Program-made: the position numbers | Shown here: positions 2,518-8,500 of the stretch, one piece after another | How positions within the stretch are numbered: the first letter of the stretch is position 1 | Layout of the letters: the number at the start of each line of letters is the position of its first letter | NCBI GenBank assembly: GCA_034440375.1 | Contig: JAWXBZ010000093.1 | Location: 1-19,456, forward strand | Reading direction: 5' to 3' | Length of the DNA stretch: 19,456 bases | Source: Candidatus Eiseniibacteriota bacterium | Lineage (GTDB): Bacteria > Eisenbacteria > RBG-16-71-46 > JABDJR01 > JAWXBZ01

Positions 2518-5500
2518 TGATCAAGCCCTCCGCGGACCGGCGGCTGGTCAGGGTCGGCACCGAGAATCATTCGGCGCTGTTCGGCGGTAAGCGCCTGGCC
2601 GTAATCGCCGGCCCGTGCGTCCTGGAATCCTTGGAGATCACACGGCGAGTGGCTGGCGAGATGCGCGATGTGTGCGCCCGGCTCAATGTGCCGTTTGTTT
2701 TCAAGGCCTCGTATGCCAAGGCCAATCGGTCGGCGGTCGAGTCCTACCGCGGCCCGGGGCTCAACGCGGGACTCGACATGCTGGCGGCCATACGCTGTGA
2801 GTTCGGCGTTCCCGTCCTGACGGACGTGCACGATCCGGGGGAGGCGGGCACGGCCGGCGCCGTGGTCGATGTTCTGCAGATTCCGGCCTTTTTGAGCCGG
2901 CAAACGGCCCTGATCGAGGCGGCGGCCCGGACCGGCAAGGTCGTGAACATCAAGAAGGGGCAGTTTCTGGCTCCGGGGGACATGGAGCAGGCCGCGGAAA
3001 AGGCCTCGGCAGCCGGAGCCGGCGGCGTCCTTCTGACCGAGCGTGGCACCACGTTCGGCTATGGCGATCTGGTCGTCGACATGCGGAGCTTTGCCATCAT
3101 GGCCGCGACCGGCTGGCCGACCGTTTTCGATGTCACGCACAGTCTTCAGCAGCCGGGTGGACGGGTGACCGGCGGGCGCCGCGAGTTCGCCCTGCCGCTG
3201 GCCCGCGCCGCGGTGGCTGCCGGCGCCGATGCCGTCTTTCTCGAAACGCATCCCGATCCGGCCAACGCGCTGTCGGACGCGGCCACCATGCTTCCGCTGG
3301 CCGAGGCCGGCCAGATACTCGAATCACTGGTCCGGGTCCGCGAGGCCCTGCTGGTCGGGGAAACCTGGCTGTGACCCGCGTCCTGTTCCTGGATGTCGAC
3401 GGCACGCTCACCGATGGCGGCATCATTCTTGGCGAACGGGACGACCTGCGCCGATTCCATGCCCATGACGGGGTCGGCATCCGGCTTGCGATGCTGGCCG
3501 ACATCGAGGTCGTTTTCCTGTCAGCCCGGGAAAATGCCGCGGCCGAACGGCGGGCCAGGGAGCTCGGTGCCCGGGCCATTCTCGGAGCGGCCAGGAAGCA
3601 TGAGCACGTGGCACGCGTCTGCGCCGAACTGGGGTGCACCACCGCCGACGCCGCTTTCGTCGGCGACGACTTACAAGACTTCTCGGGGATGAAAGCGTGC
3701 GGCCTGGCCATCGCCGTGGGCGACGCGGTCGCCGAGGTTCGGGAGGTGGCTCACTACGTCACTATCCGGAATGGCGGTTACGGAGCGGTTCGAGAGGCGG
3801 TCGAGTGGCTGCTCCGGCGGGAAGGGCGCTGGGAGGAAACGCTGTCGCAGTTTCTTTCGACCAGCGATTTCGTGATCCGGAAGGACGCGGGCGCGCGGTG
3901 ACGGGCGAACGCTGCCCATGAGCGATGATCGCGAGGCACTTCTGGCCGCCGCCCGTCAGGTCATCGAGGCCGGGCGTGATGCCATCATCGGCCTCTCCGA
4001 CGCACTCGACGAACGATTCCTGGCCGCGGTCGAGCTGCTCGACAAGGCGCGGGGACGCATCGTCGTGACCGGCATCGGAAAGTCGGGTCTTGTCGGCGCC
4101 AAGATTGCGGCCACGTTGAGCTCGACCGGCACGCCGGCCCTGTTCCTGCACACTTCCGACGCGCTCCACGGTGATCTCGGAGTCGTGACGAAGGATGATG
4201 TGGTGCTGGCCTTCTCGAAGAGTGGCCGGACAGCGGAGTTGACGCAATTGTTGCCGCTGCTGGCGCGCCTTGGCGTGCCCGTGGTGGCCCTGGTGGCTGA
4301 TCTCGATTCACCGTTGGCCCGGGCGGCCCGGATTACGCTGCCGCTTGGACGGGTCCGCGACGCCGGACCGGAGGATCTGATTCCCACGGCTTCGACGACG
4401 GCGGCAATGACCCTTGGCGACGCGCTCGCCGTGGCCCTCATGCACCGGCGCGGCTTCGATGCGCGAAGCCTGGCATTCATTCACACCGGCGGCCTGATCG
4501 GCCGCCAGGCCGGATTGACGGTGGCAGAGATCATGCACTCCGGCGAGGCATTGCCGGCGGTGCCCCAGACGGCCACGCTCCGGGAAGCCCTGGTCGAGAT
4601 CCTGGGAAAGAAGCTCGGTGTGACGACGGTCACCGGGGCCTGTGGCCGCCTGGCCGGCATCCTCACCGACGGCGACCTGAAACGGATCTTTCTGTCCGAC
4701 ATGGGCGCCGCGGCGCTGGACCAGCCGGTGTCTTTGTTCATGAGCAATCGTCCGCGCACGATCAATCGGGAGGCACCCGTGGCCGAGGCGGTTCGGGTCA
4801 TGGAGGACCCGGCTCAGGGATTTGTGACCTCACTGGTGGTGATTGATGATGTCGACCGCGCGGCCGGAATCGTGCACCTGCATGATTGTCTGAAGCCAGC
4901 CTGATATCGAAATGGCATATTAGTTGCTTGACCGGACCCCCCAAGGTCGGATACTTACTTATATGATGACAAATCACGAGACAATTTCCCGGGAGCAGCG
5001 ATGACGGCACAATCGACCACCGATCTGGGTCGGATGATTCGCTGCCATGCCGGTCGATTCCTCATGGAATCACTGGCTCGGTGCCCCCGCCCGATTGGAC
5101 TGCGAATCGGGCGCCGCCTTGGATCGCTCGGATTTCGGCTGGTCCGGAGGGATCGATGGATCGCCCGAGACAACCTCGCGCACGCCTGGCCGGAACTGTC
5201 CGAAGTGGAACAGGGGGTTCTGGCCCGTGCGGTGTTCGAACGCCTCGGAGAGAACATCTTCGACGTGGCGGCCCTTCCGCGTTGGAGTCCGGAAGAACGG
5301 CGGCGCCGTCTTGACGTGGCCGGTCTTGATCATCTGACCGCCGCCCTGGCGGCGGGGCATGGCGTCATCCTGATCGGGGGTCACCAGGGGGCATGGGAGC
5401 TCATCGCACCCGCGCTCTCCGATCGAGGCGTGTCGGTCATTGGGCTTGCCCGGCCGATTCGTGAAGCCCGGCTCGATCAGTGGCTGGATGCGCATCGCGC

Positions 5501-8500
5501 AGCAATCGGTACGCAAACCATCAAGGTCGGTGGCCTGGCTGCCGCCCGCAGGGCGCACCGGATCCTCGCGGATGGCGGCGTCCTCGGGCTTCTGATCGAT
5601 CACCGTGTTCGAAACGGGGGGCGATGGTTCGACTTCTTCGGCCGCCCGTCACGATTTGCCACGGGGCCAGCCCGGCTGGCCATCGCCACCGGGGCGACCC
5701 TGGTGCCGGTGACCATCGGCCGGCGCGAGGACGGCGGGCATCGAATCACGATCGGCCCGGCCATTCTTCCCGTCGGGGCGGGACCTTTGTCCGTCGACCG
5801 TCTGCTGGGGGAGGCCGTTGCGGCGCTGGAGCAGATGATCCGCCGGGACCCGGCCTCCTGGGCCTGGATGCATCCCCGATGGGGCCGGCCGGTGCGGCTC
5901 TGCGGGGCGAAAACCTCCAGCGCCGCCGTCCAACCTGGCCTGTCACTTCCAGCTCTGCTCACGCTTTCATCTCTCCTTGCCGGTGCGGCCCTGTTCGCGA
6001 CGGGATGCAGCGAGTCAAAGCCCCCGGGTGGCGCTCCCGCCAACGAGGAGTCGAGTTCCATGCTTGCCGGCGTCACGCTTCGGGAAACTTTCGACGGACA
6101 GCTGCGCTGGGTTCTCAAGGCCGATTCCTCGGAGACCTTTCGCCAGCCCGATCAGACCATTGCCACCCGGGTGCATGTCGATTTCTACAACTCGACCGGG
6201 CAGATCACATCGGTCCTGACGGCTGACGAGGGCGTCGTCCAGCGCAGCAATAACGACATGACGGCCCGGGGTCACGTCCTCGTCGTCACGGCACAGGGCG
6301 ATACGCTGACCACCGAACGGCTCGACTGGAGCAGCGTGCAAAACCGCGTGAAGACCGATCTGCCGTTCCGCCTGGCCCGGCCGGACGGCGTGATGACCGG
6401 GGTGGGCTTCGAGAGCAATCCCGATCTCACTGACTACACGACACAGCAGGTGCGAATCGATGCCCGTGACCGTCCCCATGACTGATCGCGCCGGGCGCTC
6501 CGCCCTTGCGTCCACGGACGTTCTCTCGGCCATCGACCTGGTCCGCTACTACGGCAAGACCCGGGTGGTCGACGGCGTCAGCCTCACGGTGAGCCCCGGG
6601 CAGGTTGTGGGGCTTCTGGGTCCGAACGGTGCCGGCAAGACGACGACTTTCTACATGATCGTGGGCCTCCTGGCGCCAACATCGGGGAGCATCCGACTGG
6701 GCCAGGCCGACCTGACGCGCATGCCGATGTACCGCAGAGCCCGGCTCGGCGTCGGCTATCTGCCGCAGGAGCCCTCCGTCTTTCGAAAACTGTCGGTGAA
6801 GGAGAATATCGAGGCCATCCTCGAAACGATGCCGATGACAAAAGTGGAGCGACGTGCCCGCCTGGAGGAGTTGCTGGCCGAGCTCGATTTGGGGAAGCTC
6901 GCCGATCGCAAAGCTTGGAACCTGTCGGGTGGTGAACGGCGGCGCCTGGAGATCACGCGCGCGCTGGCCTCGTACCCGCGATTCCTCCTGCTCGACGAAC
7001 CGTTCGTTGGCATCGATCCGATCGCGGTTGCCGAGATCCAGGAGATCGTGCTGCGACTCAAGGCGAAGGGACTGGGGATTCTGATCACCGATCATAACGT
7101 GCGCGAGACCTTGTCCTCCACCGACCACGCGTTCATTATGTTCCAGGGGCGCATCAAGCTCTCGGGAACGGCCAGCCAACTGGCGGCGGATCCCGAGGCC
7201 AGGCGCCTCTATCTCGGAGAGAAGTTTCAACTGTGATTCACCGGTCGATGGCACCTCGCGAAAGGACGCCGTAATGGAGATGAGGCAGGGCCTGCGTCTG
7301 ACGCAGACGCAGAAGCTCGTCATGACGCCGAAGCTCCAGCAGGCGCTGAAACTGTTGCAGGCGCCGACACTGGAGCTGCAGCAGATGTTGAAGATGGAGA
7401 TGATCTCGAATCCACTCCTCGAGGAAGTCGACGAGCTGACCGAGGAACCGGAAAAGGAAACCTCCGCCGATGATTTCGGCGAGGAGAACCGCCTCGAACG
7501 TGACGAGGCCGAGCCCCAGGAAGCGCCCGAGTCGAATGAGGAAGTCGACTGGACCGAGTTCATGCAGCAGGGGTCGGACTCCTCCACGACCCGGTCGGAA
7601 GAACGGCACGAGGAATTCGTCGAACGGGTTCCGGTCTCGCGCCCCTCGCTGGACGAGCATCTGGCCGAGCAGCTCCGCTACCGTGGCCTTGGCGAAGACG
7701 CCGAGGCGATCGGCGACTACCTCATCGGTTCCATCGATGAGCGGGGCTATCTCACCATGACCATCGAAGAAGTGGCGGCCGAACTCGATCAGCCTGTCAC
7801 CCTGGTCGCGGAGGTTCTTTCGGCCGTTCAGACGCTCGATCCACCGGGCATCGGTGCCCGTGACCTGCGCGAGTGCCTGCTTTTGCAGCTCCGCGCGCGG
7901 GGTCACGAGGGGAGCCTCGCCTGGCGCATTGTCGACACGCACTTCGAAGACCTGGTTCGACGCCGGCAGATCGACATCGCCCGGGCGCTCAAGGTGCCGG
8001 TGGAGGAGGTGCAGACCGCGCTCGACCTGATCGGTACGCTCTCCCCGGTTCCGGGCAACCAGGTTTCCGGCGCCGACGCGCAGTACGTCTACCCGGATCT
8101 CATCGTCGAGCGGGTGGGGGAGGACTACGTCGTCACGCTCAACGATCGCAACGTGCCGCGGCTTCGCATCAGCTCGGCTTACGAGCATGTGCTGAAGGAT
8201 GGAGCGGCCGCCAACGGCGCGACGCGCGAATACGTGGTTACCAAGCTGAACTCCGCGCGCTGGCTGATCCAGACGATCGAGCAGCGGCGGAAGACGATGG
8301 TCAAGGTCATGCGGGCCATCGTCGTGGAGCAGCGTGATTTCTTTGACAGCGGGGTCTTCCACTTGAAGCCCCTGACGCTCCAGGACATTGCCAGCAAAAT
8401 CGGCATGCACGAATCGACGGTCAGCCGTGTGACCAGCGGCAAATACGTTCAGACTCCGCGCGGCGTGTTCGAACTCAAGTACTTTTTTTCGAGCGGACTC

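Follow-up and report, generated by a model that had tools for sequence, protein, structure and literature searches.

Fusion of a putative lipid A-type acyltransferase to LptC through an internal lipoprotein-like signal in uncultured bacteria

We describe a gene of Candidatus Eiseniibacteriota bacterium (GCA_034440375.1, contig JAWXBZ010000093.1) in which an acyltransferase of the LpxL/LpxM family and the LPS exporter subunit LptC are encoded in a single frame, joined by a hydrophobic helix that ends in a lipobox-like cysteine, C336. The features of this gene and its surroundings are listed in Table 1; the window denotes the whole stretch of DNA analysed, 19,456 nucleotides in length. Judging from sequence comparisons, the product is probably a polyprotein that Lgt lipidates and LspA cuts after residue 335, which would give a tail-anchored acyltransferase and a lipoprotein LptC. 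Such fusions appear to have arisen repeatedly in uncultured bacteria.

Table 1 The fused gene, its parts and its neighbors in the window
Feature	Coordinates	Strand	Evidence or remark
kdsD (SIS + CBS), upstream neighbor	3918..4904	+	profile scan
Promoter region: sigma-54-type -24/-12 (4913-4928) overlapping sigma-70-type (4928-4955)	4913..4955	+	
Fused acyltransferase, lipoprotein-type signal and LptC gene	5001..6485	+	494 aa, one open frame
Acyltransferase domain PF03279, residues 16-294, C-terminal WxWxHxRW motif conserved	5046..5882	+	profile, hydropathy
Catalytic motif HQGAWE, H128-x4-E133	5382..5399	+	alignment to LpxM
Cytoplasmic linker, polar, hypervariable, residues 295-313	5883..5939	+	alignment; pLDDT < 50
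GTG (V298) in linker, candidate start	5892..5894	+	codon scan
Hydrophobic helix, h-region, residues ~314-332	5940..5996	+	hydropathy; model helix 316-333
Lipobox-like A-T-G-C336, putative Lgt/LspA site	5997..6008	+	alignment, pattern
Low-complexity polar tether 3' of Cys, lipoprotein-like	6009..6050	+	alignment, model, hydropathy
LptC beta-jellyroll domain, PF06835 at 358-475	6051..6467	+	profile, model, Foldseek
lptB, ATG overlaps fused-gene stop codon	6478..7236	+	profile scan

The single acyltransferase-LptC frame reported in the preliminary description is borne out by the profile scores, all above their cut-offs (146 bits against 22.3 for PF03279, 55.2 against 21 for PF06835 and 82.6 against 38 for TIGR04409 LptC), and by two other assemblies that carry the junction in frame. 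A contig from run X3 is identical to the window over 5377-6600, spanning the junction, and a contig from run X6, from a different study, runs through 5319-6238 without loss of the frame or of the Cys codon; the latter represents a strain 96.6% identical to the window, with 31 substitutions and one 3-base insertion across 920 bases. The X4 and X7 contigs stop short of bridging the junction. Both domains are present in 18 of the 38 homologs (E <= 2e-122, 47-100% identity, the query counted), and the remaining 20 show an acyltransferase match only; database names of the fused proteins reflect one half alone. An origin of the frame in faulty sequencing or assembly, or in a recent read-through without function, is extremely improbable: the fused gene is the sole PF03279 and the sole LptC gene of its assembly, the X3 and X6 contigs cross the junction in frame, and 18 family members as well as 120 Omnitrophota proteins (among the matches listed), all independent, retain the catalytic dyad along with both domains. 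Such an artefact is rejected for the window and for the two large clades. A few distant fusions are known as lone proteins on lone contigs, so that individual distant cases may be errors.

The placement of the gene in a kdsD-lptB operon holds on the lptB side, where the two genes overlap, but a separate promoter region for the fused gene lies in the gap after kdsD. Genes kdsB, pyrG, kdsA and kdsC (pyrG known from its translation alone) are located 5' of kdsD. No lptA was found between lptC and lptB. The PF13100 profile failed to detect LptA/D in the window assembly, and LptA/D was recovered on contig C67 using as the query a protein of genome G001, the genome whose fused protein matches at 51% over residues 6-490.

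The H128/E133 dyad of the acyltransferase half aligns with that of LpxM, E133 lying opposite the residue altered in the LpxM E127A structure 5knk, and the HQGA(W/F)E motif is present in 17 of the 18 family homologs, the 18th sequence being truncated. The domain shares PF03279, the fold and the H-x4-E dyad with both the LpxL/LpxM family (A. baumannii LpxM, PDB 5kn7/5knk) and mycobacterial PatA (5f2t/5oce; Foldseek E ~1e-15; TM-score by target 0.70 for LpxM and 0.84-0.88 for PatA). It differs from these enzymes in its low identity (~24%), in the lack of an N-terminal transmembrane helix, for which the hydropathy profile gave no sign, and in carrying a C-terminal signal helix and LptC. None of the NCBIfam cut-offs for LpxL, LpxM and LpxP was reached (best score 98.5 bits against 209-540), so the protein is a member of the family rather than a named ortholog. 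The earlier designation as a lipid A late acyltransferase is thus softened: PatA is about as good a match as LpxM, but the substrate is likely of the lipid A type, as judged from the context, with lpxC, lpxK and waaA in the genome and kds genes upstream of the fused gene.

The LptC half, with model beta strands at 353-488, is matched by Foldseek to 3my2, 4b54 and 6mit_C and has the same jellyroll as LptC of the E. coli LptB2FGC transporter (TIGR04409; 3my2, 6mit_C; TM-score by target 0.84-0.85). The partners that this transporter needs are encoded, with lptB immediately downstream and LptF/LptG elsewhere in the genome. In E. coli, the N-terminal helix of LptC stays uncleaved and tunes LptB2FG, and few of the surveyed LptC homologs are predicted to be lipoproteins (PMC9544173, Table S1). 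Unlike in E. coli LptC, the helix in the window protein is internal, following a 300-aa enzyme and ending at a Cys box.

Both the single hydrophobic helix of the linker and the cysteine at its end, as described previously, are well defined: 19-residue segments with hydropathy >= 1.4 start solely at 312-319, and C336 is invariant across the 18-row alignment. By hydropathy and sequence pattern, a Cys box was called in 18 of 18 family members, in 116 of 120 Omnitrophota fusions (among the matches listed) and in 13 of 16 fusions of a further set. The surrounding linker drifts, with a mean column identity of 0.36, no invariant columns and a distance of 31 to 114 aa from the W to the Cys. As judged by comparison with relatives, the C336 box is the ancestral lipoprotein signal of LptC, given that the same helix followed by G/A/S-C is found in 32 of 33 stand-alone LptCs (and in 20 of 20 more by eye). 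Among the nine fusions that lack the Cys, seven end the helix in small-x-Ala, a signal-peptidase-I-like site (by eye), and two have no clear cut site. The ancestry of the Cys, its retention amid a drifting linker and the alternative site in most Cys-less fusions all favor cleavage by signal peptidase II. The strict lipobox [LV][ASTVI][GAS]C is absent from the window protein (A-T-G-C) and present in 3 of 18 family members, 40 of 120 Omnitrophota fusions (among the matches listed) and 8 of 33 stand-alone LptCs from that phylum. An Asp at position +2 occurs in none of the 18 family members and in 3 of the 120 Omnitrophota fusions (among the matches listed); hence, these proteins have no inner-membrane retention signal of the E. 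coli type, although LolA is present.

The genes lgt, lspA and lnt are each encoded in all five genomes tested, the window assembly among the carriers. The window protein shares with Sec/SPII lipoproteins a hydrophobic helix, a G/A/S-C box, a polar tether and all three enzymes of the Lgt-LspA-Lnt pathway, in which Lgt and Lsp work at the periplasmic face on a membrane-embedded lipobox (PMC8048626). Lipoprotein signals are by definition N-terminal (PMC8048626), whereas the one in the window begins about 310 residues into the translated chain, with its Cys at residue 336, and a whole enzyme would take the place of the signal peptide. The helix and Cys seem to constitute a signal that is lipoprotein-like in its working, yet non-canonical.

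Under the polyprotein reading, the gene would be translated as a single membrane protein of predicted N-in/C-out topology, the acyltransferase folding in the cytoplasm and the helix at ~314-332 acting as an internal signal anchor while LptC is moved to the periplasm. C336 would be lipidated by Lgt, LspA would then cleave just before it, and Lnt might N-acylate it after the cut. The first product, an acyltransferase of 335 aa, would be C-terminally anchored through the former signal helix and most likely add a secondary acyl chain to its presumed substrate, Kdo-lipid A; the second would be a lipoprotein LptC with the mature form of the stand-alone LptCs of these phyla and a partner of LptB2FG. 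The cytochrome b-c1 polyprotein FbcH of Bradyrhizobium japonicum is cleaved at an internal signal peptide by signal peptidase I, without lipidation. The fused gene is like fbcH in that two proteins parted by an internal signal sequence would be made from one gene, and unlike it in the lipobox and the predicted involvement of signal peptidase II.

Of the two fates offered in the preliminary description, both of them predictions, cleavage by signal peptidase II is now better supported than the joined form. The joined form is an unlikely alternative that deserves weighing: the whole product, lipidated or not, would place its LptC helix in the LptF/LptG gate and keep the acyltransferase next to the exporter on the cytoplasmic face, so that the maturation of lipid A and its export would be co-located or co-regulated. 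In E. coli, the helix of the bitopic LptC contributes to LPS extraction, and an engineered lipoprotein LptC is processed incompletely and called nonfunctional by the authors, a statement for which that paper shows no data (PMC9544173). A retained helix would also hold in the inner membrane an LptC that lacks the Lol-avoiding +2 Asp; the window acyltransferase has no N-terminal transmembrane helix of its own, and the fusion recurs at least 9 times, the two genes being neighbors in several phyla. However, a Cys made redundant by tethering should decay, but 134 of 138 fusions (among the matches listed) retain it, and most of those that lost it gained a different site for cleavage. Sequence and length of the linker are both hypervariable, fusions revert to two genes, and direct hand-over is impossible because acylation takes place in the cytoplasmic leaflet, ahead of the flip by MsbA, and extraction by LptB2FGC starts from the opposite leaflet (PMC6358824). 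A complex prediction for the acyltransferase domain with LptB gave a score of 0.00 (mark 0.32) and counts neither for nor against the joined form. Slow or conditional processing is an improbable further reading, in which the uncut precursor would keep the acyltransferase tethered beneath a helix seated in the LptF/LptG gate until the Lgt/LspA cut releases or activates LptC.

Somewhat less probable than an uncut product is loss of the stop codon combined with an internal start, such that the acyltransferase reads on and a start in the linker, or the WMH Met, yields LptC as a separate protein; selection on the lipobox would then be maintained as well. In the window, the V298 GTG, with a Shine-Dalgarno (SD) energy of -4.7 kcal/mol, is the only ATG, GTG or TTG in the stretch from the acyltransferase end to the Cys, and the 96.6%-identical X6 strain has no start codon there because the middle base of the GTG is changed. 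We scanned 36 fused loci with DNA from the acyltransferase end to 14 residues before the Cys: some start codon is present in 30 of the 36 (ATG in 12), none in the other six, compared with a start in 29 of 29 split genes (ATG in 22). Starts preceded by SD were found in 14 of 36 fused loci, no more often than expected from the acyltransferase coding background (22), and their positions differ between loci, none being conserved. The f13 fusions G027 and G038 do have a linker ATG with strong SD (-7.5 and -9.4 kcal/mol). As for the WMH Met, 119 of 120 Omnitrophota fusions (among the matches listed) and 12 of 17 family members have it, but it belongs to the enzyme motif, is missing in G001, G006, G021 and G038 and is preceded by an SD in 9 of 36 fused loci. 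The concern about a separate start raised previously recedes, if not for every lineage: the window GTG is lost in a close strain and no conserved start is seen.

The fusion is not confined to one family, as had been suggested. It was found in 6 of the 40 Eisenbacteria-type loci examined. In an Omnitrophota order, 27 of 37 genomes carry a fusion of acyltransferase, LptC and an additional LptA-like domain, an architecture shared by all 120 homologs among the matches listed; no lptA lies in the operon of the window. An 81-row tree requires 13 fusion or fission events, at least 9 of them forced, and the AU test rejects uniting all fusions in one clade (p = 4e-6); the trees are of a quick type with SH-aLRT support only, two have outgroups that are not clean, and the short L171 was left out. 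Within an Omnitrophota clade of 33 rows, 28 fusions enclose five nested split genes, two of which are parted by new in-frame stops in the linker. The acyltransferase and lptC genes adjoin in several phyla, and the fusions would have originated when the stop codon separating the two genes, long adjacent and in most cases overlapping, was lost. If the product is cut, the fused and split forms would be nearly interchangeable, which would explain repeated fusion and reversion. Among the best 150 of 195 rows, the five longest unexplained LptC frames (G062, G072, G102, G157 and G187) showed no recognised fusion, kdsD included; owing to the promoter gap between kdsD and lptC, this survey is no fair control for acyltransferase specificity. 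The unpublished genome G081 counts towards that tally alone and supports none of the conclusions. In Poribacteria, where a +1 programmed frameshift might join the two genes, no conserved slippery site was found. The full-text matches listed, which cover subscription journals thinly, include no paper on the fusion; the term 'internal lipobox' did not occur among the full-text matches listed, and the available portions of PMC5007114 and bioRxiv 10.64898/2026.10.02.756314 contain nothing on the fusion.

Either main outcome would be unusual. If the product is cut, signal peptidase II would process a polyprotein with a folded 300-residue enzyme as the 'signal peptide', a type missed by N-terminal signal predictors and annotation pipelines; if it is uncut, a lipid A-modifying enzyme would be covalently bound to the LPS exporter. 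Should processing be conditional, lipoprotein maturation would be a switch, invented anew at least 9 times, that couples lipid A acylation with LPS export. Whole phyla appear to use a lipoprotein LptC that has neither a permanent transmembrane helix nor a +2 Asp, and these natural variants would allow direct tests in E. coli of what the LptC helix does and of how far recognition by Lgt and LspA extends.

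The acyltransferase and LptC are encoded in a single frame of 494 aa that contains both Pfam domains, as the preliminary description stated (see table). The linker likewise holds the one hydrophobic helix and lipobox-like Cys ascribed to it: the sole hydrophobic segment (~314-332) terminates in A-T-G-C336, and the acyltransferase part lacks a transmembrane helix at its N-terminus. In an AlphaFold2 model (mean pLDDT 80), an alpha/beta domain is followed by disorder (295-319), a helix (316-333), further disorder and lastly a beta-jellyroll; Foldseek matches the N-terminal half to PatA/LpxM and the C-terminal half to LptC, and E133 aligns to the catalytic glutamate of LpxM. 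The C-terminal part scores 82.6 against the NCBIfam LptC cut-off of 38. Each half belongs to a known family (PF03279; LptC), and the acyltransferase is not itself a named ortholog. An artefactual fusion is extremely improbable, given that contigs from two sequencing runs cross the junction in frame, one (X3) with zero differences to the window and the other (X6), from a different study and a strain ~96.6% identical, with the Cys codon intact.

Features of the fused gene and its surroundings
Feature	Position	Location	Source
kdsB-pyrG-kdsA-kdsC-kdsD		upstream of fused gene	
Sigma-54-type -24/-12 site overlapping -35 hexamer of sigma-70-type promoter	window 4913-4955	before fused gene	
Acyltransferase-LptC frame	window 5001-6485 (+)		
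PF03279 acyltransferase domain	residues 16-294	fused gene	Pfam
PF06835 LptC domain	residues 358-475	fused gene	Pfam
lptB-rpoN		downstream of fused gene	
Continuation of rpoN operon	window 7274-16948		
Small nucleotidyltransferase (PF18765)	window 19108-19413	contig end	Pfam

In the assembly (93.7% complete), PF03279 matches nothing but the fused gene, which also encodes the sole LptC, so both halves are presumably required; the other fused genomes tested carry additional PF03279 paralogs. All five genomes tested (4 fused, 1 split) encode lpxC, lpxK, waaA, lptF/G, lolA, lgt, lspA and lnt. The earlier label of a lipid A late acyltransferase agrees with the family and the lipid A context, from which secondary acylation of lipid A is the predicted role, but does not extend to named LpxL/M/P orthology, the N-terminal part being under all of these NCBIfam cut-offs. 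LptA is missing from the lptC-lptB operon in all Eisenbacteria-type loci examined; an OstA-like-repeat protein of 1,240-1,390 aa, which may be an LptA-LptD fusion, is encoded elsewhere (L200; in this assembly an LptA/LptD-like protein on contig C67, ~4940-8419, minus strand).

The overlapping sigma-54/sigma-70 site precedes the fused gene-lptB-rpoN operon and was matched by 0 of 200 shuffles, a control that applies to the window site only. By a relaxed pattern, a sigma-54-type site is found in 25 of 39 Eisenbacteria-type loci (relatives L001-L039, L121-L123 noted), including loci whose operon begins with lptC; none of the 12 non-Eisenbacteria loci examined has one. Its position upstream of the rpoN operon suggests rpoN autoregulation, as in other bacteria. 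The operon goes on with hpf, hprK, a mannose-type PTS (IIA, IIB, IIC, IID), HPr and enzyme I; between IIB and IIC sits an inserted GH57 4-alpha-glucanotransferase-like gene (rpoN, hpf, hprK, HPr and enzyme I were named from translations, not by domain scan). The nucleotidyltransferase at the contig end is of the kind known as the antitoxin of MNT-HEPN pairs.

The fusion is real and recurrent, joins known parts, and is not confined to one family as initially thought. The clade of the window comprises 18 fused proteins. The Omnitrophota-type fusion of locus L124 has 182 homologs; among the matches listed, all 120 carry both domains, many have an extra LptA-like domain, and the taxon-named ones are Omnitrophota. 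One Omnitrophota order is represented by 37 genomes, of which 27 have the fusion, 6 have split genes and 4 are uncalled. In L048, L108, L124 and L203-L238 (600-770 aa, immediately upstream of lptB), LptC is extended by the LptA-like PF03968, so that the fusion is acyltransferase-LptC-LptA-like. Further fusions came from searching 50%-identity representatives with a profile: both domains occur in 18 of the 34 matches selected by length for scanning, one of the 18 being labelled Gemmatimonadota. One homolog of the fusion family is source-labelled Candidatus Eisenbacteria. Other fusion partners of this acyltransferase family are a heptosyltransferase (PF01075), a second copy of the acyltransferase, YjeF_N and an ELM1-like domain (among proteins P0021-P0036, P0163-P0180, P0220 and P0272).

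On quick trees with imperfect roots, in which some distant fusions are single sequences, the fused/split label changes 5 times among 65 rows (4 forced; the AU test rejects grouping all fusions in a single clade, p = 4e-6) and 13 times among 81 rows (9 forced by well-supported branches). Fusions also revert: a 33-row Omnitrophota clade consists of 28 fusions with 5 split genes nested inside, two of which arose when an expanded linker acquired in-frame stops. Short tandem DNA repeats expand Omnitrophota linkers (L223/G215, L227/G237, L231/G227); two of these three loci have a new in-frame stop followed by ATG, and one gene is frameshifted within the acyltransferase.

Among 39 of the 40 searched relatives (G031 left out), the locus is fused in 5 (G001, G006, G021, G027, G038), has adjacent, separate genes in 22, has lptC but no acyltransferase in 11, and stops at a contig edge in one. 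A hydrophobic helix ending in G/A/S-C is present in 32 of 33 stand-alone LptCs, the sole exception appearing frameshifted, and, by eye, in 20 of 20 more. Because stand-alone LptCs carry this element, the linker is the ancestral LptC lipoprotein signal, which became internal once the stop separating two genes that usually overlap was lost. Across the clade of the window, identity averages 0.36 over the columns from the enzyme end to the box, none of them invariant, and 0.39 over the tether that follows the Cys, whereas the Cys itself never varies and is always preceded by G, A or S. In Omnitrophota fusions, 31 to 114 residues separate the last enzyme Trp from the Cys, and G/A/S-C is kept in 116 of the 120 listed. 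It is likewise kept in 13 of 16 distant representatives. Nine fusions lack the Cys (P0062, P0085, P0089, P0158, P0173, P0174, P0182, P0189, L048), and in seven the helix terminates, by eye, in small-x-Ala, resembling a signal peptidase I site. The conserved element thus appears to be a cleavable signal rather than any particular tether. Two points count against this: a strict lipobox occurs in only 3 of 18 window-clade and 40 of 120 listed Omnitrophota fusions (yet also in only 8 of 33 stand-alone LptCs), and fusions almost never have Asp at +2. The signal is also internal, whereas lipoproteins are defined by an N-terminal one.

LptC could also be made from an internal start in the linker, which we consider improbable. 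We scanned 36 fused loci with DNA for ATG, GTG or TTG from the enzyme end up to 14 residues ahead of the Cys, scoring SD at -3.5 kcal/mol or better (anti-SD core of E. coli type). Six have no candidate, an ATG is present in 12, and a start with SD in 14, fewer than the 22 that the coding region of the enzyme itself would predict; split loci, scanned over 12 more codons, have a start in 29 of 29, ATG in 22 and SD in 21 (18 expected). No start is conserved across fused loci. The window's only candidate, GTG at 5892 (V298; SD -4.7), is lost in the X6 strain through a change of its middle base, and no other listed change makes a start. In the lineage of G027 and G038, LptC may be started internally, since both keep an ATG with strong SD, although G021, a relative of theirs, lacks one; this part of the earlier reservation stands.

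In Poribacteria (L046-L112, 51 loci), lptC overlaps the acyltransferase stop in the +1 frame. Across the final 30 codons this frame holds no stop (6 sites, 0 of 299 possible), and 16 of 52 sites further upstream are stop-free as well; ATG, GTG and TTG are absent near the junction in 40 of 51 loci, and the junctions show no conserved slippery site. A TTG with weak SD lies 86-89 bases before the end of the last Trp codon in 50 of 51. These genes would either start at a deeply overlapped TTG, with a ~50-residue signal, or be recoded fusions.

A large cytoplasmic domain ahead of a signal anchor is ordinary. The nearest known precedent for such a polyprotein is Bradyrhizobium FbcH, cut by signal peptidase I, on which the literature search turned up no paper. 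Our literature search, thin in subscription journals, found no publication on an acyltransferase-LptC fusion; processing via an internal lipobox is so far undescribed within the literature searched. Between cleavage by signal peptidase II and a lasting tether, both proposed in the preliminary description, we favor the former, the box being conserved and the processing enzymes encoded. Probably, one chain is lipidated and cut at the internal box: it would insert N-in/C-out, Lgt and Lsp would act at the periplasmic membrane face, and cleavage would leave a tail-anchored acyltransferase and a lipoprotein LptC. According to PMC8048626, Lgt and Lsp recognise the lipobox at that face, so extra sequence at the N-terminus would not necessarily be an obstacle. 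It seems unlikely that the acyltransferase stays joined to LptC, although, in PMC9544173, the E. coli LptC helix participates in extraction and an engineered lipoprotein LptC is partly unprocessed, its modified form being nonfunctional by the authors' statement. Direct hand-over of substrate from the acyltransferase to LptC is excluded by topology because MsbA flips LPS between acylation and export (PMC6358824).

The fusion is less remarkable in that the Cys is inherited from LptC, fusions revert and nothing found here supports coupling of the two halves; even so, whether cut or kept, an internal lipobox is out of the ordinary and informative about what the LptC helix does.
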